The translations under genes were made by a program, and so were the position numbers. Below the pieces are notes generated by a model. That model made no database searches, was not told the DNA's origin, and was given only the letters and a program-made list of their open reading frames with translations. Source: Arenicellales bacterium (GTDB lineage Bacteria > Pseudomonadota > Gammaproteobacteria > Arenicellales > JAJDZL01). Taken from it: 64,000 nt of DNA. Positions 17,272 to 45,711 of the stretch are shown in pieces. The stretch spans positions 2,106,828 through 2,170,827 of the forward strand of contig OZ243928.1 of the NCBI GenBank assembly GCA_965213865.1, given 5' to 3'. Numbering within the stretch: the first letter of the stretch is position 1; each line of letters opens with the position of its first letter.

Positions 17272-17337
17272 TTTCATTCCGGGCTCCTTTACTGACGGCG
17301 ATAGCGCTCGCTATCTGTCGATTCCTCAGGTGATTTG

Positions 17338-18558
17338 ATGTCTCTCATTGTCGAAAAATATGGCGGCACTTCTGTCGGTGATCTTGATCGAATCGACGCA
17401 GTGTCAAAACGTGTCGCGCAAGCGAAAGAGCAGGGCAACTGTGTTGTGGTTGTGCTCTCTGCCATGGCCGGAGAAACCACTCGTCTAATTGAATTGGGTC
17501 GGGCAGTCGATGCAGATGCGTCGCCGCGAGAGCTGGATATGCTGATTTCAACGGGTGAGCAGCAGACGATTGCACTGTTGAGCATCGCGCTGAATCGCCT
17601 CGGCTGCAAAGCTAAATCTTATGTAGGCAGTCAGGTTCCGATTGTGACCAGCGACCGGCATGGAAAAGCACGTGTCGAGGATATCGATACTGCCAGAATA
17701 CGAGGTGATTTGGAACAAGGATACATTGTTGTCGTAGCCGGATTCCAAGGGGTCAGCAAAGACAACGAAATCACCACGCTTGGCCGCGGCGGCTCCGATA
17801 CCACAGCAGTGGCCCTGGCGGCAGCGCTGAAGGCCGACGAATGCCGCATCTACACGGATGTTGACGGGGTGATGACTGCAGATCCGAGGATCGTTCCCGA
17901 TGCCCGGGTGCTGGAGCGCGTGACATCGGAGGAGATGCTGGAACTTTCAAGCCTTGGGGCCAAGGTTTTACAGATACGGGCAATGGAATTCGCACACAAA
18001 TATGGAGTCAAGCTGCGGGTTCTGTCCTCATTCAGCGACTCAACAGGCACCCTAGTCACAGCGGAGGAGAGGTCGATGGAACAGCCACTGATTACCGGCA
18101 TAGCATACAACACCAATGAAGCCAAATTGACCATTCGGGGTGTGCCGGACCGCCCCGGAATCGCATCGCAGGTATTCGGCTCGATCGCGGAAGCGCAAAT
18201 CAATGTTGACATGATCATACAGAATATCGGCAGCGACAACAATACGGACTTGACCTTTACGGTGGAGCGGGCGGATTTCAAGGTGAGTATTGACTTGCTT
18301 GAGAAAGTGCGGGTCAGTCTGGGTGCGGCAGACATTGTGGCGGCGGACGATATTGCCAAAATTTCTGTGGTCGGGGTGGGCATGCGCTCGCACTCGGGGA
18401 TTGCCACCAAAATGTTCCGAACGCTGGCCGGCGAAGGCATCAATATCCAAATGATCTCAACGTCAGAAATCAAGATTTCTGTGATTGTCGAGGAGAAATA
18501 CGTTGAATTGGGCGTGCGGGCGCTGCATCAAGCATTCGGCTTGGAGCGGACCGCTTAG
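17338..18558 (+). CDS. lysC: aspartate kinase
   Basis: Contains VEKYGGTSV, VVVLSAMAGETT and two C-terminal ACT domains. The last ~108 codons are duplicated at 25287-25610. Confidence 0.95.
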   Translation: MSLIVEKYGGTSVGDLDRIDAVSKRVAQAKEQGNCVVVVLSAMAGETTRLIELGRAVDADASPRELDMLISTGEQQTIALLSIALNRLGCKAKSYVGSQVPIVTSDRHGKARVEDIDTARIRGDLEQGYIVVVAGFQGVSKDNEITTLGRGGSDTTAVALAAALKADECRIYTDVDGVMTADPRIVPDARVLERVTSEEMLELSSLGAKVLQIRAMEFAHKYGVKLRVLSSFSDSTGTLVTAEERSMEQPLITGIAYNTNEAKLTIRGVPDRPGIASQVFGSIAEAQINVDMIIQNIGSDNNTDLTFTVERADFKVSIDLLEKVRVSLGAADIVAADDIAKISVVGVGMRSHSGIATKMFRTLAGEGINIQMISTSEIKISVIVEEKYVELGVRALHQAFGLERTA

Positions 18559-18831
18559 CTCTGGGCATGAAATCTGCATGTTTTGGAGTTGTTTCTGCGG
18601 CTTTTCCATTGGCCTGAGATCCTTGTTGTGACTGAATCTGCGGGGGGGGGTGAATTTTTTCCTTGTCCCGCCAGCGCCGCTCGCTGGAATACTCTCCTGA
18701 AAGGGGCTTTTCACCCCGATTCCGAAAGTCGCCTGATCCAGGCGGCTTTTTTCTTTAGTGGTTTTTTTTATCATAAATCACCCCCCTGCCGGTGCATTAT
18801 CACGGCCATTGCCAAAACTCGGCACACAAAA
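18235..18831 (+). repeat. left copy of a 597-bp direct repeat (lysC 3' end plus 273-bp 3'UTR)
   Basis: Near-identical to 25287-25883. The differences I found are three synonymous changes in the first 16 nt, one synonymous GGG/GGC change, G9 versus G11, T8 versus T6, and one T/C change. Confidence 0.95.
18728..18753 (+). terminator. rho-independent terminator at the end of the lysC 3'UTR
   Basis: The sequence gtcgcctg-atc-caggcggc forms an 8-bp stem and is followed by TTTTTTC. It is repeated in the second copy near 25780-25806. Confidence 0.7.
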
Positions 18832-19817: not shown

Positions 19818-20475
19818 CTACCGGCATCCCCACCGGTTCAGTAAATCGGTGTTGTCCTGAGTTGAGCTGAACAGGGGCAGGGTGGTCTTGCGCCCGCACC
19901 AGCAGTTGCGGACATGCTGCTGGGTCAGGGGGCTGATCGAGAAGCACCCGCTGTTCTGGCCTTCAGTACCGGGCGCCACATTCATGGTGTAGGTGCCGCC
20001 CGTCATGAAGCAGCGGCGGGCAAACACAATGTCTTCATGACCTGATGAAGTCACATTAACTTCCAAATAATAAGACGTCTTCACAACCAAGTTACTTATG
20101 ACGTCGTTTTCGCTTGGGAGCATTGTCTCGCTAAGGAGTGGATTGGGTACTTCCGCCACTTTCTTATCTGTGCCGGCTTCCTTAACAATGTAAACTACTT
20201 GTGCTGAGGTTGGTGGTGTCGTATCGCCAAGCCGCCCGACGTATTCGTTCCATGTGATAGCCGGTGCCGTGTAGCTCACGCTGGTTGTGGATAGGGCCGT
20301 GATGGGCATATTCCCAGCATTGACCTCTTTCTTATCAAGGCAAGCCGTGGGGCCTTCTCGCCCGCTGCTGGTTACGGTCGTCTGCGCTGTTACGGCCGCT
20401 GGCAGCGCCAGCAACGCAAGCAGAAAGAAGGCTGCTAATTTATGAGGGGGGGGGTGAAAGTAAAATGCGTTTCAT
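19818..20475 (-). pseudogene. phase-variable-leader secreted protein, family member A (currently out of frame at a C9 tract)
   Basis: GGAGGA lies 6 nt upstream of the ATG at 20475. The reading frame MKRILLS + C9 (20446-20454 on the + strand as G9) runs into TAA. With C8 it continues PHKLAAFFLLALLALPAAVTA/QTT into the 198-aa ORF of the track. Confidence 0.55.
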
Positions 20476-20608: not shown

Positions 20609-21490
20609 AAATCGGCACGTTCAATGCTGAGGGCGAAGATGGCCCGCTGAATTCGTCGGTTCGACTTGCCCGGCCGCGTTCTCAGCGCCGCATTTTCCGT
20701 AAAACCGGCGGCTGTGGCGCGACTGCGTAGCTGGGCGGCCGCCGACCGGCAAATCAGCGCGCTGCTTGAGGCGGTGCGCAATCTGCTGCGCCGCTGCCGG
20801 CAAGGAGTGCTGATGCCTTGGACCTGCTGGTGTCTTTTCGGACTGCCCAGCGTGACCGGCATGCGTCTCGGCGAGGTGCGCACTCTGGGAATCGAAGACG
20901 CTGATCTCACCGAAGCGATATTGACCGTGCGTCATGCCAGGACATGGCCGCAGCCGTCTGCCGCCAGTGCACTTGCGAGTGGCTCAGGCAGCATGCGAAT
21001 CAGCACGAGCAACGCTGGAGAGGACGTGTGAAGTCGAATTGGTTCTTTGTCTCAGGCAGAGGATCAAGACTGGACCGGCGCACTGTCGATACCGCCTTTC
21101 GCAAACTCGCTTGCCAGCCGAGGTTGTGTCAGGCGGCGGACAGAACAGGCCCGCGAGTCCATGATCTCAGGCACACCTTCTGTGTCTGGACTTTGGAGCG
21201 ATGGCACCGCGGCGGCGAGGATCCGGAACTGCTGCTGCCGCAGCTGACACCCGGCTTGATGGCGCAAGCGATGGAGCGGTTTTTCATGCAGCCGCTGCAG
21301 GCCAGTATGCATGCCGCTTGCTCGTATCGCGACATGTTCCGACAGTTGCTGGAGCTCGCTGCCAGGCGATTTGACCGGTCCCCGGAGCGTATCGCATTCG
21401 AGCAGGTCGATGCCGCGCTGGCCAGTGACTTTCTCGCTCATCTCAAGCGCAGCCGCAACATCAGTCCCCGAACCCGCAATCTGCGGCGTG
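20609..21490 (+). pseudogene. two fused, frameshifted tyrosine-recombinase remnants (RIT-like adjacent integrases)
   Basis: VTGMRLGEVRTLGIEDADLTEAILTVRH, then GKSRL-like, then FFVSGRGSRLDRRTV..RVHDLRHTFCVWTLERW occur in three different frames. This is fused to the N-terminus of a second recombinase (SYRDMFRQLLELAA..FLAHLKRSRNISPRTRNLR). There is a premature TGA at codon 9. Confidence 0.7.
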
Positions 21491-21492
21491 TA

Positions 21493-21845
21493 CTAGGTCA
21501 GCACGCGAAGTGCTGCCGCGGGGTCCCTGTCAAGCACCCGCAACAAGGCACGCGCCGCGGCCGTCGGGCAACGCTTTCCCTGCTCTCAGTTGCGGATGGT
21601 ATCGGGGGAAACATGGATGCGGCGTGCAAATTCGCTCTGCGTAAGCCCGAGCCCCTGCCGGACTCGGCGCGCATAACGCGACGCATCCTTCATGTCTTCG
21701 TCAGCGGCATCCGCCACCGCGAAGTCGACCCCCTAGGGAAGGTTCCAGGGTCCTTGGGATCAACCTCACGCGAGATTATGCCAGCATCGCAGCGTCGGAA
21801 GGTACCAGGGTCCTTGGGATCAACCCTGACGCGCGTTTTGGTCAT
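21493..21845 (-). pseudogene. BrnA-like antitoxin remnant
   Basis: Starts MTKTRVRVDPKDPGTF and ends with an HTH tail GLGLTQSEFARRIHVSPDTIRN*EQGKRCPTAAARALLRVL, where TGA replaces the conserved Trp codon. It also carries a frameshift and a 29-bp direct repeat (near 21737 and near 21797). Confidence 0.6.
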
Positions 21846-22101
21846 GTCTTTTAACCTCCCTAAGGTCAGCCTTGCGGGCAGAAATAATGCGGAACAAATG
21901 TCCTTCCATGGTATAGACAACAACATAGCCCCGTTCTTCGATCATGCCGAGTACCTGATAGCGATTCTCGCCATAGTCCCGGCGGCGATCCCGAAAACTG
22001 ATCTTGTGCCGGTCGGAAAAGACACGAGTCGCATAGTTGAAATCAAAACCGCGATTTTCAAAACAAGCCTCACTTTTCTTCTCGTTCCGTTCGAATTCCG
22101 T
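21820..22101 (-). pseudogene. BrnT (DUF497) toxin remnant lacking a start codon
   Basis: EFERNEKKSEACFENRGFDFNYATRVFSD..GENRYQVLGMIEERGYVVVYTMEGHLFRIISARKADLREVKRH matches the BrnT pattern (RIISARKA). The frame is closed by a stop immediately upstream, at the junction with the tandem array. Confidence 0.65.
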
Positions 22102-22236
22102 TCAAAATATTGCAAGCCTTTGGCCTATATTTGTCCATCTATCTGTCTGCTGGGAGAATCTGATCCGCTGCCTGCTCCCGGCAAGATCTGCACAGTCGGC
22201 TTGAAAACCCGCCTGATGATCTTATAGAATGGGGGC

Positions 22237-22503
22237 ATGGAAGAATCCACGAGTCACGAACAGGCAAAAGACATTGCCGAGTTGAAGAAACAGCACGCTG
22301 TGATGGAGGAACGAATGAAGACACTGCAGGCCGACCTTCAGGGAACGCTTGAGCGTTTCCGGGCCGACATGGCCGACTTGAAAACCGACATGGCCAGGCG
22401 GGATACCGAAGCCGGAAAGCGGGAGAACCGACTGCTCATAACCATGATCGTGGTAGTCGGCGTGGCCACTGCGACACTGGGTGTGCTAATCACTGCGCAG
22501 TAG
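22237..22503 (+). CDS. small tail-anchored coiled-coil protein, array copy 1 (88 aa, no extra heptad)
   Basis: Has an acidic helical N-terminus (MEESTSHEQAKDIAELKKQHAVMEERMKTLQADLQGTLERFRADMADLKTDMARRDTEAGKRENR) and a C-terminal hydrophobic helix (LLITMIVVVGVATATLGVLITAQ). Confidence 0.6.
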   Translation: MEESTSHEQAKDIAELKKQHAVMEERMKTLQADLQGTLERFRADMADLKTDMARRDTEAGKRENRLLITMIVVVGVATATLGVLITAQ

Positions 22504-22807
22504 CCGCAAACTACTGCTGCCGCCGGCAGGCGGCGCCAACCGTCCTGCTCCTGGTCATCCGCAAATGATTAAGTCAGAAAAGACGCCTGGAGCAGGCGGC
22601 TTTCGGGGGTGGAGTGAAAAAACCGCTTTCAGCGGCCTGGGCCTCCGAAAAGCGGCTTTCAGGGGGGTATTCCGGCGGCGCTGCGGGGCAAAAAAAATTT
22701 CACCCCCTCGCAGGTCCAGTCATACCAAGGATTTCAGGCAATGGAAAAGCCTCCTGCTGGGAGAATCTGATCCGCTGCCTGCTCCCGGCAAGATCTGCAC
22801 AGTCGGC

Positions 22808-22837
22808 TTGAAAACCCGCCTGATGATCTTATAGAAT
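22808..22837 (+). promoter_or_regulatory. sigma70-like promoter in each array unit (also at 22201-22230, 23457-23486 and 24085-24114)
   Basis: TTGAAA - 18 nt - TAGAAT, with the -10 element ending 6 nt before the ATG of the small ORF. This implies a leaderless or near-leaderless mRNA. Confidence 0.5.
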
Positions 22838-22843
22838 GGGGGC

Positions 22844-23152
22844 ATGGAAGAATCCACGAGTCACGAACAGGCAAAAGACATTGCCGAGTTGAAGAAACAG
22901 CACGCTGTGATGGAGGAACGAATGAAGACACTGCAGGCCGACCTTCAGGGAACGCTTGAGCGTTTCCGGGCCGACATGGCCAGGCGGGATGCCGACATGG
23001 CCAGGCGGGATACCGACATGGCCGACTTGAAAACCGACATGGCCAGGCGGGATACCGAAGCCGGAAAGCGGGAGAACCGACTGCTCATAACCATGATCGT
23101 GGTAGTCGGCGTGGCCACTGCGACACTGGGTGTGCTAATCACTGCGCAGTAG
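22844..23152 (+). CDS. small tail-anchored coiled-coil protein, array copy 2 (102 aa, two extra ADMARRD heptads)
   Basis: Identical to copy 1 except for an in-frame 42-bp expansion. Confidence 0.6.
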   Translation: MEESTSHEQAKDIAELKKQHAVMEERMKTLQADLQGTLERFRADMARRDADMARRDTDMADLKTDMARRDTEAGKRENRLLITMIVVVGVATATLGVLITAQ

Positions 23153-23492
23153 CCGCAAACTACTGCTGCCGCCGGCAGGCGGCGCCAACCGTCCTGCTCC
23201 TGGTCATCCGCAAATGATTAAGTCAGAAAAGACGCCTGGAGCAGGCGGCTTTCGGGGGTGGAGTGAAAAAACCGCTTTCAGCGGCCTGGGCCTCCGAAAA
23301 GCGGCTTTCAGGGGGGTATTCCGGCGGCGCTGCGGGGCAAAAAAAATTTCACCCCCTCGCAGGTCCAGTCATACCAAGGATTTCAGGCAATGGAAAAGCC
23401 TCCTGCTGGGAGAATCTGATCCGCTGCCTGCTCCCGGCAAGATCTGCACAGTCGGCTTGAAAACCCGCCTGATGATCTTATAGAATGGGGGC

Positions 23493-23780
23493 ATGGAAGA
23501 ATCCACGAGTCACGAACAGGCAAAAGACATTGCCGAGTTGAAGAAACAGCACGCTGTGATGGAGGAACGAATGAAGACACTGCAGGCCGACCTTCAGGGA
23601 ACGCTTGAGCGTTTCCGGGCCGACATGGCCAGGCGGGATGCCGACATGGCCGACTTGAAAACCGACATGGCCAGGCGGGATACCGAAGCCGGAAAGCGGG
23701 AGAACCGACTGCTCATAACCATGATCGTGGTAGTCGGCGTGGCCACTGCGACACTGGGTGTGCTAATCACTGCGCAGTAG
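23493..23780 (+). CDS. small tail-anchored coiled-coil protein, array copy 3 (95 aa, one extra heptad)
   Basis: Identical to copy 1 except for an in-frame 21-bp expansion. Confidence 0.6.
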   Translation: MEESTSHEQAKDIAELKKQHAVMEERMKTLQADLQGTLERFRADMARRDADMADLKTDMARRDTEAGKRENRLLITMIVVVGVATATLGVLITAQ

Positions 23781-24120
23781 CCGCAAACTACTGCTGCCGC
23801 CGGCAGGCGGCGCCAACCGTCCTGCTCCTGGTCATCCGCAAATGATTAAGTCAGAAAAGACGCCTGGAGCAGGCGGCTTTCGGGGGTGGAGTGAAAAAAC
23901 CGCTTTCAGCGGCCTGGGCCTCCGAAAAGCGGCTTTCAGGGGGGTATTCCGGCGGCGCTGCGGGGCAAAAAAAATTTCACCCCCTCGCAGGTCCAGTCAT
24001 ACCAAGGATTTCAGGCAATGGAAAAGCCTCCTGCTGGGAGAATCTGATCCGCTGCCTGCTCCCGGCAAGATCTGCACAGTCGGCTTGAAAACCCGCCTGA
24101 TGATCTTATAGAATGGGGGC

Positions 24121-24408
24121 ATGGAAGAATCCACGAGTCACGAACAGGCAAAAGACATTGCCGAGTTGAAGAAACAGCACGCTGTGATGGAGGAACGAAT
24201 GAAGACACTGCAGGCCGACCTTCAGGGAACGCTTGAGCGTTTCCGGGCCGACATGGCCAGGCGGGATGCCGACATGGCCGACTTGAAAACCGACATGGCC
24301 AGGCGGGATACCGAAGCCGGAAAGCGGGAGAACCGACTGCTCATAACCATGATCGTGGTAGTCAGCGTGGCCACTGCGACACTGGGTGTGCTAATCACTG
24401 CGCAGTAG
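24121..24408 (+). CDS. small tail-anchored coiled-coil protein, array copy 4 (95 aa, one extra heptad, G->S in the TM segment)
   Basis: Same as copy 3 except for ggc->agc at 24363. A 3-nt microsatellite gain follows the stop. Confidence 0.6.
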   Translation: MEESTSHEQAKDIAELKKQHAVMEERMKTLQADLQGTLERFRADMARRDADMADLKTDMARRDTEAGKRENRLLITMIVVVSVATATLGVLITAQ

Positions 24409-24716
24409 CCGCAAACTACTACTACTGCCGCCGGCAGGCGGCGCCAACCGTCCTGCTCCTGGTCATCCGCTCACCAGTTCTATTTGAGGATTAACCCCAT
24501 CCATAAATAGAGAACACAAGAGTACCCGGGGCTTGCGTGGCGTGATTTTCGAGAGGCCTGCAGAATCACCCATTGGGTGATTTCAGGTCGAAGGCTGAAA
24601 TCCGCATCACATATGCCTTTCCGCCTAATGCCGAGAAATCTGTTCAAGGAGTCGGGAATTCTCCTGCTATTGCGCAGAGATGAAAATGCTGTACAATTTC
24701 TGTATCTCGTTCACCC

Positions 24717-25107
24717 TTGGAGAACCGGAATGAAGCTCTGAACGAAATTTACTCCCCCCCCCTCGCTAGACTGACGGCCTTTCTGGGTGCTGTTCTCGCC
24801 CTGCCTGCCGGGCCGGTGATGGCCGAGCAGTGCGGTATATCTCATATCACGATGAGCAAAACCTACCCGAATGAGGACTTTATAGTAGAAGGTGTTCCTA
24901 GTGGAGCAATAGTCTCTTTCTCACTGGAAGAGTCAGGCTGCGACAATCTCGGTAGTCCTGGTACTCCTCGGGAATACGCAATTCCCTTTTGCGACTGCCT
25001 TAATAGTTCCGTACGACAACGACTTCGTGGACGACATGGAGAATTCCATTCATGTCATCTTTAGACATGGTACGAAATACCAGCACTTAAGGATCCCCAT
25101 CCATGAT
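24717..25107 (+). pseudogene. phase-variable-leader secreted protein, family member B (degraded paralog of member D)
   Basis: The C9 tract (24764-24772) is followed by LARLTAFLGAVLALPAGPVMA/EQCGISHITMSK..CDNLGSPGTPREYAIPFC. The mid-section present in D is deleted, and the conserved C-terminus VPYDNDFVDDMENSIHVIF..LRIPIHDDE* lies in another frame. The ATG at 24730 runs into TGA after 3 codons. Confidence 0.5.
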
Positions 25108-25286
25108 GATGAGTGACCGAACATAAGGGGATTCGAGAGACGCGAAACGAAGATATGCATCATTCCCCATTGCCTCTTGCCTCATCTGACCGCAGGGATG
25201 ATCAGATGAGGATTGCAGGCCGCCCTTGAACCGAGTGTCTAACGGCGCAGTTCCTGGTCGCTGGCATGCGATGACCTGTTCCAGAG

Positions 25287-25883
25287 GACAACAATACAGA
25301 TCTGACCTTTACGGTGGAGCGGGCGGATTTCAAGGTGAGTATTGACTTGCTTGAGAAAGTGCGGGTCAGTCTGGGTGCGGCAGACATTGTGGCGGCGGAC
25401 GATATTGCCAAAATTTCTGTGGTCGGCGTGGGCATGCGCTCGCACTCGGGGATTGCCACCAAAATGTTCCGAACGCTGGCCGGCGAAGGCATCAATATCC
25501 AAATGATCTCAACGTCAGAAATCAAGATTTCTGTGATTGTCGAGGAGAAATACGTTGAATTGGGCGTGCGGGCGCTGCATCAAGCATTCGGCTTGGAGCG
25601 GACCGCTTAGCTCTGGGCATGAAATCTGCATGTTTTGGAGTTGTTTCTGCGGCTTTTCCATTGGCCTGAGATCCTTGTTGTGACTGAATCTGCGGGGGGG
25701 GGGGTGAATTTTTTCCTTGTCCCGCCAGCGCCGCTCGCTGGAATACTCTCCTGAAAGGGGCTTTTCACCCCGATTCCGAAAGTCGCCTGATCCAGGCGGC
25801 TTTTTTCTTTAGTGGTTTTTTATCATAAATCACCCCCCTGCCGGTGCATTATCACGGCCATTGCCAAAACCCGGCACACAAAA
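25287..25883 (+). repeat. right copy of the 597-bp direct repeat; it contains a displaced lysC 3' fragment (25287-25610)
   Basis: Encodes DNNTDLTFTVERADFKV...GLERTA*, identical in amino-acid sequence to the lysC C-terminus but with no 5' part. It is followed by the same 3'UTR and terminator. Confidence 0.95.
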
Positions 25884-26070: not shown

Positions 26071-26253
26071 GTGTTGATATTGACCCGAAAGATTGGCGAA
26101 TCTATAAGGATTGAAGATAATATCTCGGTTTCAGTGCTGGATATAAAGGGGAATCAAGTGCGAATCGGTGTAGAGGCGCCCAAGCAGATAGCTGTTCATC
26201 GAGAAGAGATTTATCAGAGTTTGAAAAGCAAAAAAACCAAGGATAATTTTTAA
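26071..26253 (+). CDS. csrA: carbon storage regulator CsrA/RsmA
   Basis: Reads (V)[50 protein letters not shown] start preceded by AAGGGGA. Confidence 0.9.
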
Positions 26254-35744: not shown

Positions 35745-36015
35745 CAAGGCAAACCAATAGCTCTTCGATTCCATGCTGCCTTGAGTGCGGCAGGTGTCAG
35801 CACGTGCTGAGTTTGAAATAGACGATGAAACGAATAGAAAAATCCGCTTGGCGGCATAAAAATGACAGCTCAGTGAAACGCAATTCGAGGATCAATCCGC
35901 CTTGTCAAAAAAACACCCTCAAACTGGGGCACCTTACTCCGTCCAAAAAAAGAATAAATTCACCTTGATTTTTATTATAATCCAAAAATTATAATCTGAC
36001 TTTAAGGATAAAACT

Positions 36016-36606
36016 ATGAAACAATCCCAGAATCCCCCCCCCCTCGCTAGACTGGCAGCCCTTCTATTGCTTCTAGCAATGGCAATCCCGGCGGGGGCTC
36101 AGACGACGATCCGGGAGGGGAATGATATACTAGTAAATATGGAAATTCAGAATAATAAAATGGGAACTGAGGCGCGAGTTGCCGCCGCACTCGCGGCAAG
36201 AAACAGCATCCCTGTAGGTTGTGGCGTGGCAGGGAGTGACGCTTGCTTCACTATTGAGAGAGTCTGGCCATCTGCCGCATACATTCGGATAACAGCCGTC
36301 GCGGACGATTGTAGAAACGGTACTGCAGCGAGACAGGTGACAGTCGACAGCACAACCTATCAACATCAGGATGATGATTGGTATCCGAGGTATACATGCG
36401 CAAATCCACAAGTTATGACCAAGTATAACCAAGACTATAGACATGGATATAGAGATACTTGCAGGGCGCATGAAATATCTAGTGGTCAAGAGTGCTTAGC
36501 CAAGTGTCTTGATACACAGATTTGGCGTGAAGCAGGTTGGATCCCACTAGGCGGAACCGAAATAAGCAGGGTGGGAGCTAATGGTGCCTGCGAAACTTGG
36601 AAGTAA
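36016..36606 (+). CDS. phase-variable-leader secreted Cys-rich protein, family member C (in frame, C10 tract)
   Basis: MKQSQN + C10 (36034-36043) reads through as PPPLARLAALLLLLAMAIPAGA/QTT. The mature part is ~170 aa with 8 Cys. A TATAAT-like element lies ~35 nt upstream, and a hairpin follows the stop. Confidence 0.6.
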   Translation: MKQSQNPPPLARLAALLLLLAMAIPAGAQTTIREGNDILVNMEIQNNKMGTEARVAAALAARNSIPVGCGVAGSDACFTIERVWPSAAYIRITAVADDCRNGTAARQVTVDSTTYQHQDDDWYPRYTCANPQVMTKYNQDYRHGYRDTCRAHEISSGQECLAKCLDTQIWREAGWIPLGGTEISRVGANGACETWK

Positions 36607-43925: not shown

Positions 43926-45057
43926 ATGGAAATTGTACCGCATCGCCGCGAATCGACCGGCGCGAATTCACCTCCCGAGCCGGGCTGACGGCATTTGCGC
44001 ATTTCATGAGCAGGCTGGGCTTGAGCGAGCGGTGCGAGCCGCTGTTTCCGGCTGTCGGCAGCCGCCGGGGCTGTCGGGCCAGCGAGTATCTCCATGTGCT
44101 TGTGCTGCTGCTCATGGAGGGCGGGCAGTGTCTGGAGGATGTGCGCCATCTGCATGCCGAGCGGGGCTTGATGCCGCTGCCGGGCATCCGGCGGATGCCC
44201 CAAGCCGATGCCCTGGGCCCTGGCTGGGGCGCTGCGGCTCAGGCCCTGGAGCGGCTGAATGCGAGAGTCATACAGATGGCGCTGGGCGACCGGCGGCAGG
44301 TGAGCTGGATCTTGATGCGACCGCGGCGCTGTGCGGCAAAAGGCCTGCGAGGCGCACTTGTCTTGGACAGCGCGGCTGGATGCCGATGGTCGGCCGCATC
44401 GCGGCGACCGGGCCGGTGGCGGCGAGTGATTTTCGGCGCGGCAATCGCCCGCCGAACGATGACAATTCAGGTTTTATCAAGCGCTGCATCAGGGCCTTGC
44501 CGCCGGGGGTGAAGGTGACCCGGGTGCGCATTGATGCAGCCGGCTGGTCCAAGCCGGTCATCAGGCATTGCCAGGATCACGGCATTGGCTGTGCGATCCG
44601 GGCGAGAAGCGGCGCTCGCTGTAGTGATCCAGCGCCGCCTGAAAGACGAGGCCGATGACGGCGGTGCGGGGCGGACGATCAGACGATTGACTGCGACCGG
44701 CAGGTGTATCGCGCGATCGGGACCCGTCTGGATGCATTGGACGGCTGGGGCGACAGCGGCATTGTGCACTGGCACAGCCGGCGCGGCGGCCGCAGCGAGA
44801 ATCGGCTCCGGGAGCTGAGGCAGGATTTTGCCGGCGGGCGGATGCCGTGCAGCGATCATCAGGCCAATGCGCTGTGGCTGTCGCTCAGTGCGCTTGCATA
44901 CAGCGTGTCTGTGCTGTTTCGGCACACGCTGCCGCAGGAGCTTGGGAGCGCCCGCGCCTCGACGGTGCGCTGCCGGCCGCTGGCGATCAGCGGCCGATTC
45001 CCGATTTTTCTCACCGCTGCCGGCCGCCCCGCCAAAATCGGGCTCGAAAAAGGCTGA
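43926..45057 (+). mobile_element. IS1380-family transposase pseudogene (several frameshifts)
   Basis: EFTSRAGLTAFAHFMSRLGL..YLHVLVLLLMEGGQCLEDVRHL, then LDLDATAA..., then FRRGNRPPNDDNSGFI..ALPPGV..RIDAAGW, then RRGGRSENRLRELRQDFAGGRMPCSDHQANALWLSLSALAYS. These are spread over three frames. Confidence 0.65.
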
Positions 45058-45184
45058 AATCGACCGATTGATGCGAAAATGTCGCTCTAACGCGGACTTA
45101 GGGGGAATGCCGATAAACGAGCATGCCTGCCGGGATGTGGTATAATGCCAGGCATCACTCGCATTCCAGGAGAGGATAAAGAAA

Positions 45185-45711
45185 ATGAAACCGGCATCAG
45201 CATTCACCCCCCCCCGCTAAAATTAGCAGCGTTCCTGCTTCTGGCAGGCTTGGCGATGCCGGCCGGCCCGGCAGTGGCCGAGCAGTGCAATGCCTCCCAT
45301 ATTGAGATAACCAAAGTCTTCCCGACTACGGCATTTGTCAGCGAAAACCAGTCGCCTGGCGTGGTCCTCCGGTTCAAGCTAACGCGCTGCGACAATCTCG
45401 GCAGCAGCGGCACTCCCCGGGAATACCAGATTCCCTTCTGCGCCGAGTTCTTCGACACCACCCCGTGCGATGCCAACGCTACAGGCTGCCTGAGCAACAA
45501 TGTTGCCGGCGCTCGCGGTGTTGCAGCCGCCGACTGGCCGGTTGCCGGCGCGTTCAAGCGGTGCTCCTAAATTATTGAGACTCAGAACTTCCGAAATGCA
45601 CTCGTAGCCCCGTACAACAACGGCTTCCGGGACGACGGGGAGAATTCCCTGTACGTCATCATGCACAACCCAACCCGTCATCTGCGCATTCCCATTCGGG
45701 ACGATGACTGA
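45185..45711 (+). pseudogene. phase-variable-leader secreted protein, family member D (out of frame at C9; also an in-frame TAA at 45568)
   Basis: AGGAG precedes the ATG at 45185. MKPASAFT + C9 (45207-45215) runs into TAA. With C10 it reads PPPLKLAAFLLLAGLAMPAGPAVA/EQCNASHIEITK..CDNLGSSGTPREYQIPFC. The conserved C-terminal block APYNNGFRDDGENSLYVIMH..LRIPIRDDD* continues in the same frame after the TAA. Confidence 0.5.

Follow-up and report, generated by a model that had tools for sequence, protein, structure and literature searches.

Proteins of the DUF1640/CCDC90-like family (PF07798) include human MCUR1 and CCDC90B, yeast Put6 and Put7, and many small bacterial proteins. The Bdr proteins of Borrelia are paralogous inner-membrane proteins with a C-terminal hydrophobic anchor and central, helical, short tandem peptide repeats whose number varies among paralogues; the repeats are 11-residue KID-type units, and the genes lie on Borrelia plasmids, not in chromosomal tandem arrays. 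In Escherichia coli, ElaB, YqjD, and YgaM (DUF883) are stress-associated proteins of ~100 amino acids (aa) with a helical cytoplasmic part and a C-terminal anchor, while the long direct repeats ldr/rdl are tandem units of ~500 to 600 nucleotides (nt), each with its own promoter and a small membrane-peptide gene, the 35-aa Ldr peptides being toxic and controlled by antisense RNA. Here we describe a tandem array of four near-identical small genes in a 64,000-nt stretch of DNA (the window) from an Arenicellales bacterium of the Gammaproteobacteria (GenBank assembly GCA_965213865.1, contig OZ243928.1, forward-strand positions 2,106,828 to 2,170,827). The array probably represents a new variant of the DUF1640-like tail-anchored stalk proteins that is leaderless and lacks the head of that family, and the explanation that we consider likely as a whole is the amplification of a leaderless module whose product is a tail-anchored rod, variable in length by heptads and an offshoot of DUF1640-like proteins.

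The likeness of this family to the Bdr proteins, as these are generally described, would be one of architecture, and we know of no leaderless design for bdr genes. ElaB, YqjD, and YgaM differ from it in having no internal repeats or tandem arrays and in being expressed from ordinary leadered mRNAs, and Pfam scans of the window proteins and of 82 family members returned no match to DUF883.

Structure of the array

The four units begin at positions 22147, 22754, 23403, and 24031 and measure 607, 649, 628, and, for the last, 440 nt, so that the array ends at 24470; inspection of the sequence, a repeat finder, and a four-way alignment of the units gave concordant boundaries. Relative to unit 1, unit 2 is longer by 42 nt and units 3 and 4 by 21 nt each, and Tandem Repeats Finder places 21-nt arrays at 22971 to 23058, 23620 to 23686, and 24248 to 24314. 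The alignment and the repeat finder thus confirmed the unit starts, the lengths of the open reading frames (ORFs), and the 0, 2, and 1 extra 21-nt units recorded in an initial annotation made from the sequence alone. That annotation also held that the copies otherwise differ only by a Gly-to-Ser change and a 3-nt gain; both are present in copy 4 and in no other (a G-to-A change and a post-stop gain of ACT), but the same copy carries a second G-to-A change beside the ACT gain. Its description of the 21-bp unit as encoding ADMARRD stands for the copy-specific extra units, except that in unit 2 the final G of the second extra 21-mer is replaced by A, which gives ...RRDT rather than ...RRDA.

A better description of the layout is four gene modules (A, 416 to 458 nt) with three 191-nt spacers (s) between them, all on the plus strand. 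Module A1 (22147 to 22562) contains a -35 element at 22201 to 22206, a -10 element at 22225 to 22230, an ORF of 88 aa with no extra heptad at 22237 to 22503, and a hairpin after the stop at 22519 to 22534. Module A2 (22754 to 23211) has its promoter at 22808 to 22837 and an ORF of 102 aa with two extra 21-nt units at 22844 to 23152; A3 (23403 to 23839) has its promoter at 23457 to 23486 and an ORF of 95 aa with one extra unit at 23493 to 23780; and A4 (24031 to 24470), which abuts the ancestral right flank, has its promoter at 24085 to 24114 and the 95-aa ORF with the Gly-to-Ser change at 24121 to 24408. Spacers s1 (22563 to 22753), s2 (23212 to 23402), and s3 (23840 to 24030) are 100% identical, and the modules are identical save for the changes listed above, an arrangement that is far beyond chance. 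These four are the only copies of the family in the window.

It is very improbable that the array is an artefact of assembly, in which variants of a single gene from different strains were strung together or a repeat was expanded by the assembler. Judging by the 3,291,220-bp contig, the window probably does come from a metagenome-derived chromosome, and co-occurring strains are found to carry different alleles of a related locus (see below). However, the units are joined by three identical 191-nt spacers foreign to the flanks, which is unlike collapsed alleles, and comparable arrays are present in 21 loci from independent assemblies that include short-read metagenome-assembled genomes (MAGs; loci L037 and L076). 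Sister MAGs were assembled from PacBio HiFi reads far longer than 2.3 kb (PMC12859430), and we infer the same build for this chromosome.

Origin of the array

The closest relative in another species, at locus L001 of a Candidatus Poriferihabitans MAG, is a single module with 86% DNA identity. Its homology begins within ~4 nt of window position 22147, the module ends are sharp, and it runs straight into the right flank of the window array (...catccgc, then ccaccggttctatttgaggattaa), a flank also present at loci L057 and L091, so that the ancestral state was one module. Because the spacers are fully identical, the modules are nearly so, and the L001 orthologue is single copy, the array is a recent local amplification of one self-contained module of ~420 nt comprising a sigma-70-type promoter, an ORF, and a 3' hairpin.

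The spacers have a separate source. They are ~80% identical, in inverted orientation, to an element downstream of lysC (18598 to 18751, minus strand, with a duplicate at 25650 to 25805) that carries the lysC intrinsic terminator, and this derivation explains the minus-strand orientation of the terminator-like hairpins in the spacers. Folding of the spacer on that strand is better than that of shuffled sequences (z = -3.25). Each spacer also carries an internal duplication of a 'gaaaagcggctttcagg' motif. Plain tandem duplication of local DNA was rejected as the origin of the array, since the spacer matches neither flank and a simple duplication cannot yield the order X-A-s-A-s-A-s-A-Y.

A different account of the multiplication would make the module, with or without its spacer, a mobile cassette propagated by site-specific recombination, in integron fashion or through small circles, with the array a by-product rather than a result of selection. 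The sharp module ends (the left one within ~4 nt of the start of L001 homology), the foreign spacer, an integrase remnant 0.7 kb upstream, the cassette-like size of the unit, and the presence of 8 to 14 loci per genome, often near insertion sequence (IS) elements, all speak for such a mechanism. Yet neither inverted repeats nor attC-like structures of ≥20 nt turned up between 21500 and 25500, what is left of the integrase is a degraded Phage_integrase fragment of a generic kind, these units carry promoters whereas cassettes normally do not, and the flanks of dispersed copies are alike only in the promoter and a 3' region of ~90 nt. Purifying selection on the genes (see below) further implies that the product matters whatever its mode of spread. 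We regard the cassette account as unlikely, and it is compatible with, not exclusive of, the amplification of a functional module that we favor. Membership in an integron proper was rejected: 21500 to 25500 contains no attC-type inverted repeat of ≥20 nt, the integrase is a generic remnant, and every unit has a promoter.

Coding status of the ORFs

Comparison with relatives indicates that the ORFs are real genes and that the family they belong to is real but rare. The ratio of nonsynonymous to synonymous changes (pN/pS) between the window gene and its orthologues is 0.19 to 0.35, all indels between close paralogues are in frame, and 30 to 45% protein identity is kept across two proteobacterial classes. 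A protein search recovered 39 clusters of relatives, none with a Pfam domain, and the reading frame is kept both in these and in the 150 relatives found in genomes, which disposes of one way in which the initial annotation could have failed. A profile search of 1.84 billion representative sequences retrieved 485 clusters, defined at 50% identity, when the cutoff was E ≤ 1e-3 and 126 when it was E ≤ 1e-10. Copy 1 had no exact counterpart on record in a contig index.

These data bear on whether the repeat could be a noncoding satellite or RNA element in which the ORFs are accidental. Each unit also contains ORFs of 89 aa and 65 aa in other frames, showing how easily ORFs emerge in a GC-rich repeat, and the folding of the spacer minus strand would suit an RNA element. 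The alternative-frame ORF has no homologue or domain, however, an Rfam scan gave no family match within the array, and the low pN/pS, the in-frame indels, and the conservation of the protein across two classes are all at odds with accidental reading frames; we give this alternative almost no credence.

Promoter geometry and predicted leaderless transcripts

The promoter sequence TTGAAA-18 nt-TAGAAT occurs in all four units (22201 to 22230 in the first), and each copy ends 6 nt before the ATG. Between 21900 and 24800 there are four promoter-like sites, all of them array promoters, compared with 1.3 ± 1.1 in shuffled sequences. Because TAGAAT begins with a TAG in the reading frame of the ORF, an N-terminal extension is ruled out.

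We extended the analysis to 120 genes whose ATG aligned to the first residue of the family, corresponding to 103 distinct upstream regions. At this position, the 120 genes analyzed have ATG as their start codon. In 78 of the 103 regions, a TAnnnT motif stops exactly 6 nt short of the ATG, and in 63 of the 103 the full TTGnnn-N16-19-TAnnnT pattern is present, ending 5 to 8 nt before the ATG, as against 7 of 1,015 control ORFs from the same loci. The six nucleotides between the -10 element and the ATG are variable (gggggc, ggccgc, ttttcc, aggagc, and others). With the -10 element so placed, transcription is expected to begin at the A of the start codon or at an adjacent nucleotide, which is the signature of a leaderless mRNA; the ATG start and the lack of a Shine-Dalgarno sequence at functional distance agree with this. 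The leaderless transcripts proposed in the initial annotation are thus borne out by comparison, and the predicted leaderless design, conserved across Gamma- and Alphaproteobacteria, is strongly supported by these upstream regions. The family provides a clear comparative case of conserved leaderless gene design in Proteobacteria.

Protein architecture

The proteins share a short, variable, acidic N terminus followed by a conserved core (AVLEERM[KN]T.Q.DL...LER[FL]RADMA), a variable number of heptads of the form DMARRD[AT] or DMADWKT, then KRENR or RDKDNLRW, and finally a hydrophobic helix. This last segment, of ~23 residues, lies at the extreme C terminus and leaves a tail of 0 to 8 residues (mean, ~8, among 194 members). 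An AlphaFold model computed with the family alignment is one continuous helix spanning residues 2 to 94 (mean predicted local distance difference test score, 81.5); Foldseek matched this model to nothing in the PDB, a lone helix being uninformative. Together, the continuous helix and the C-terminal hydrophobic segment found across the family argue for the membrane-anchored rod that had been predicted.

We infer a tail-anchored, N-in topology, because there is no signal peptide, the K/R-rich KRENR precedes the helix, and the tail is only 0 to 8 residues long: the C-terminal helix would lie in the cytoplasmic membrane and the charged N-terminal 65 to 79 residues in the cytoplasm. The N-terminal part is likely an alpha-helical coiled-coil stalk, probably oligomeric, and it would be trimeric if the relationship to DUF1640/CCDC90B discussed below holds. 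Paralogues are mosaics of alternative N termini, cores, and anchors (those at L004 and L009b differ essentially in the central module), which points to recombination among copies.

Small size, a C-terminal transmembrane (TM) helix, and ~600-nt tandem units with their own promoters are also features that a membrane toxin, a holin, or an XhlA-like lysis protein might present, including a type I toxin-antitoxin system of the ldr/rdl kind with an antisense RNA for each unit. XhlA, a lysis-associated protein of the PBSX and SPbeta prophages, is similar in having ~90 aa, an N-terminal coiled-coil-like helix, and a C-terminal TM helix, and the initial annotation had drawn that comparison. It did not hold up: just 1 of 82 members matches XhlA (PF10779), at E = 0.0033, XhlA-type PHROGs give E values of 0.05 to 2.4, and the genes have no phage neighbors, no prophage or lysis-cassette context, and, in a scan with one peptide pattern, no relatives on viral contigs. 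To our knowledge, XhlA does not occur in multicopy arrays. The other hints are weak PHROG matches to "hemolysin" (XhlA-type), holin, and spanin families (E of ~0.04 to 0.05), the toxin-antitoxin remnants that adjoin the array, and the minus-strand orientation of the spacer hairpins, which is accounted for by their origin in the lysC terminator. A toxic product under four near-consensus promoters would presumably be hard to tolerate, no PADLOC match was obtained, and the products, at 70 to 160 aa with a long charged stalk, contrast with type I toxins of <60 aa. Compared with the Ldr peptides they are 2 to 4 times longer, have a charged stalk, and lack a conserved antisense promoter. We consider a toxin or lysis function improbable. 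The type I toxin-antitoxin candidate in particular was rejected, given the absence of a minus-strand promoter peak along 117 family genes, the length of the proteins, and the lack of an Rfam match.

Length variation across the family

The window array is a typical and very recent case of a recurrent pattern. Same-strand arrays of two to five copies, 350 to 1,100 nt apart, are present in 21 of 74 loci, so the array context that the initial annotation proposed looking for in relatives was indeed found. Adjacent copies that are 95 to 100% identical differ by 7, 14, 21, or 28 aa or by 4, 11, 18, 22, or 29 aa, as at L028 (91, 77, and 70 aa), L025 (80, 73, and 83 aa), L013 (99 and 92 aa), and L029 (100 and 86 aa). 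In-frame gain or loss of 21-nt ADMARRD-type units gives whole-heptad changes, as had been proposed for the rod, while elsewhere the units are of 12, 33, or 54 nt; the length from core to anchor falls into one residue class modulo 7 in 58 of 194 members.

Allelic variation within a community was also observed. In one sponge metagenome, two co-occurring strains, on contigs at 1,268× and 403× coverage, differ at a syntenic locus where their alleles have 81 and 113 codons (L090:10037-10282 and L091:9923-10264), and the longer allele has lost its start codon (ATG to ACG) and contains a 4-residue "stutter" repeat (DLRT).

Probable relationship to DUF1640 proteins

Scans of the window proteins against Pfam, NCBIfam, PHROGs, and PADLOC returned only subthreshold coiled-coil noise, with no match to PF07798 at E ≤ 10, and comparison of the family profile with solved structures gave only generic coiled coils (vimentin and Jun; E ≥ 0.0025). 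To test the DUF1640 analogy, we compared alignments. Genuine PF07798 proteins were collected with a probe sequence that served only as bait, each retained sequence carrying a precomputed PF07798 label, and 49 of them were aligned (alignment A5). Comparison in hhalign of this alignment with family alignment A1 gave a probability of 85% (E = 6e-6, 50 columns), and with family alignment A2 a probability of 79%; the aligned region sets E-R-M-K-T.Q.D-L on e-L-A-T-K.D-L and continues through the stalk to the anchor. The observed scores of 33.0 (A1) and 30.1 (A2) exceeded those of all 100 shuffles in which columns of the DUF1640 alignment were permuted within the head, stalk, and anchor segments (12.5 ± 2.9, maximum 23.4, and 13.1 ± 3.1, maximum 26.0, respectively). 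Reciprocal hidden Markov model matches reached 24 bits and were best for paralogues with the RDKDNLRW.VG...AQ anchor.

In DUF1640 proteins, a neck (beta-layer) motif, [aliphatic]-A-T-K-[polar]-[DE], marks the start of the stalk (PMC4786415), and hhalign places the family neck, M-[KN]-T-x-Q-x-[DE]-L, in which M27 and T29 are near-invariant, on L-A-T-K-x-D-L. The two groups have in common small size and, by prediction for this family, a coiled-coil stalk, one C-terminal TM anchor, and an N terminus on the cytoplasmic or matrix side; paralogues of the window genes also have a W-x-x-G...AQ-type anchor, and an h-x-T-(K)-x-D-L neck may be a further resemblance. The PF07798 trait of a single C-terminal TM anchor after a predicted stalk is seen in the translations, in the AlphaFold helix, and throughout the 194 members. 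This alignment evidence indicates that the family is probably a divergent, headless relative of the DUF1640/CCDC90-like proteins, giving quantitative support, as a remote relationship, to what had been offered as an analogy. The link is made at the profile level, and mitochondrial members of the target family, such as MCUR1 and Put6/Put7, are scaffolds. Mitochondrial DUF1640 proteins are matrix-facing membrane proteins that form oligomeric scaffolds (PMC7519068).

Tandem near-identical copies with differing repeat numbers also occur among genuine DUF1640 genes. A JGI metagenome contig (L094:4612-6835) carries a PF07798 array of four near-identical paralogues on the same strand, of 90, 134, 90, and 123 aa. 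Their length differences amount to four and three copies of an 11-residue repeat, LRHDMKELETG, and a GAGGA Shine-Dalgarno sequence precedes each gene. The repeat there is an 11-mer, whereas that of the family is a heptad (ADMARRD or DMADWKT), and the Shine-Dalgarno sequences differ from the leaderless design that promoter geometry predicts for the family. Taken with the length-graded copies within the family, this array suggests that stalk length is under selection or in rapid drift. In two Desulfolutivibrio genomes (L096 and L097, 4001-4273), a 90-aa DUF1640 gene directly follows hrcA-grpE-dnaK in the same orientation, which may point to a stress or chaperone link for bacterial DUF1640 proteins.

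Proposed mechanism and its weak points

In the mechanism that we propose, each copy would be transcribed from its own promoter, starting at or next to the A of the ATG, and the leaderless mRNA would be translated without a Shine-Dalgarno sequence. The C-terminal helix would then insert into the cytoplasmic membrane while the N-terminal rod stays in the cytoplasm. Each heptad would alter stalk length by ~1 nm, and the array would supply three lengths at once, as predicted cytoplasmic parts of 65, 72, and 79 residues correspond to ~9.7, 10.7, and 11.7 nm at 1.5 Å per residue. Copy number may shift by homologous recombination between units, and heptad number by slippage or unequal exchange within the 21-nt repeats. 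By analogy with DUF1640 proteins, the product may serve as a scaffold or spacer that is tethered to the membrane and holds out its conserved acidic N-terminal tip at defined distances from it.

Several points weigh against this reading. The weakest step is the scaffold or spacer role, which is proposed by analogy only, and the leaderless start, the membrane insertion, and the coiled-coil state are all predictions. Because some core positions of the ADMARRD heptads are taken by Arg, the stalk might be one stable helix and not a coiled coil. As for the link to DUF1640, the PF07798 cutoff is not reached (3 of 82 members match, with a best E of 0.0018), and the hhalign probabilities, which stay below 90% and cover the neck, stalk, and anchor only, are of a modest level that is not calibrated against a database. 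The family neck has one extra residue and has K or N where DUF1640 has A, and the window anchor (KRENR-LLITMIVVVG) is less DUF1640-like than the RDKDNLRW type of the paralogues. The DUF1640 head (FDTLxxxKxLxxAGFxxxQAEA in bacterial members) is present in all 49 genuine members, but the window proteins and their relatives lack it and have only ~20 to 25 residues before the neck; a search for bridging members yielded ten further, mostly longer, proteins with no PF07798 match and no recognizable DUF1640 head. The 191-nt spacer is not explicable by simple tandem duplication. Finally, several relatives are pseudogenes, such as a frameshifted one (L057) and one with its ATG changed to ACG (L091); this fits birth-and-death turnover, and some copies are possibly dispensable.

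A more far-reaching idea, which we hold to be doubtful, is that such arrays are contingency loci for a physical dimension, in which recombination and 21-nt slippage keep and reshuffle a set of graded, anchored stalks. If this were true, stalk lengths would fix a spacing at the membrane's inner surface, serving for instance a partner structure or a barrier to invaders; the leaderless, self-contained module would be suited to horizontal transfer between bacterial classes in the same host; and the family would constitute a new length-variable "molecular ruler" system and a first functional handle on bacterial DUF1640-like proteins. The natural series of 88, 95, and 102 aa amounts to an allelic series for probing the effect of stalk length.

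Distribution and genomic context

A scan of one genome per GTDB species located the 150 genomic relatives, and taxonomic labels were taken from the best 78 loci. These loci are all in MAGs, whose labels are Candidatus Poriferihabitans or Poriferihabitaceae; Arenicellales, Pseudomonadales, and Cellvibrionales; and Paracoccaceae/Rhodobacteraceae and other Alphaproteobacteria. Every relative with a checkable source is sponge derived. The GM7 bins come from a Lamellodysidea sponge (PMC7313196), the Poriferihabitaceae MAGs belong to Sanger sponge assemblies, for which metaMDBG was run on PacBio HiFi reads (PMC12859430), and 7 of 11 matches in JGI and whole-genome shotgun metagenomes lie in the LXNI and MKWU sponge metagenomes. 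By these sequence matches, this is an uncurated, multicopy family of sponge-symbiont Proteobacteria, so far seen only in sponge-associated bacteria. With 8 to 14 loci in a single genome and symbionts of at least two proteobacterial classes represented, it is a candidate niche-specific trait. One contig labeled Candidatus Saccharibacteria (L069, VXPC01000053.1) has family genes and promoters nearly in the style of Poriferihabitaceae loci such as L059 and is probably misbinned rather than the result of transfer into Saccharibacteria.

The restriction to sponge-associated bacteria could also be read as a sign of a host-directed effector, a SNARE-like tail-anchored coiled coil sent into sponge cells, where it might, for instance, block phagosome maturation. 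The size and layout (~60 to 90 helical residues and a C-terminal TM helix) resemble those of an R-SNARE, and leaderless mRNAs are translatable in any system. The proteins carry no secretion signal, however, no secretion system is linked to the genes, no SNARE family appears among the Pfam matches, and an anchor this hydrophobic would be expected to keep the protein in the bacterial inner membrane, its rod on the cytoplasmic side. The homology signal, moreover, points to DUF1640, an inward-facing (matrix-facing) family (PMC7519068). We judge an effector role to be highly improbable and keep to a stalk tethered inside the bacterial cell.

A Pfam scan of 104 flanking proteins revealed no recurrent neighbor domain, no phage genes, and no secretion system; with no recurring neighbor domain, the gene appears to stand alone. 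All-against-all BLAST of the flanks gave mostly spurious GC-rich frames and IS transposases, and the flanks of dispersed copies have nothing in common beyond the promoter and the 3' region. No relative was found among 2.9 million viral contigs, in a search whose sensitivity was limited to one peptide pattern. A literature search on the family, on Poriferihabitans, and on tail-anchored, repeat-variable bacterial proteins turned up nothing relevant.

The island around the array

The array lies in an island of 7,052 bp bracketed by direct repeats of ~600 nt that are 99 to 100% identical. The left repeat (18235 to 18831, plus strand) consists of the 3' end of lysC and the terminator element, and the right repeat, 7,052 nt away (25287 to 25883, plus strand), includes a duplicated lysC 3' fragment at 25314 to 25610 and is followed by csrA at 26071 to 26253. 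Such an arrangement fits the integration, by a single crossover, of a circular element bearing a piece of lysC. Intact lysC (17335 to 18558), recA, alaS, csrA, tRNA-Ser, and tRNA-Arg are all outside the island. Inside it, upstream of the array, are a frame-broken tyrosine recombinase (integrase) remnant (20666 to 21500, plus strand; PF00589, E = 3.4e-7 on 20944 to 21500) and remnants of a BrnT toxin and a helix-turn-helix antitoxin (21586 to 22115, minus strand; PF04365, E = 7e-6; PF01381, E = 2e-5), and the description of the region as a decayed island is thus apt. The toxin-antitoxin remnants contain a 29-nt direct repeat (GGAAGGTTCCAGGGTCCTTGGGATCAACC) whose copies, at 21737 to 21765 and 21797 to 21825, are 97% identical and 60 nt apart. 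In a related genome (L093:1-10267), an island beside csrA contains a family gene immediately preceded by an intact BrnT/BrnA pair; three family genes lie there within 6 kb, and two of these are near-identical, at 99 and 88 aa (an 11-residue difference).

A second uncurated family, of secreted Cys-rich proteins of ~200 to 235 aa with no Pfam match, accompanies the tail-anchored genes within a few kilobases, in either orientation, in 16 of 93 loci. In the window, its members are at 19821 to 20471 (minus strand), 24717 to 25064 (plus strand, truncated), 35995 to 36603 (plus strand), and 45091 to 45567 (plus strand), the first two of them within the island, and others are at L090:8969-9676 and near position 6700 of L004. 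The region upstream of the truncated gene (24490 to 24725) is conserved in L012, L057, and L026. The N terminus of these proteins (...SPPPPLARL...) is encoded across a poly-C tract, of nine C residues at 24754 to 24762 in the truncated gene and ~25 in L004, and this 5' homopolymer looks like a slipped-strand on/off switch.

In four Rhodobacteraceae loci (L015:7771-12192, L035, L062:4700-5100, and L075), giant RTX-type proteins with GGxGxD nonapeptide repeats adjoin family genes. Elsewhere in the window, the GC content peaks locally at 0.677 in positions 44001 to 45000; the window as a whole averages ~0.54.

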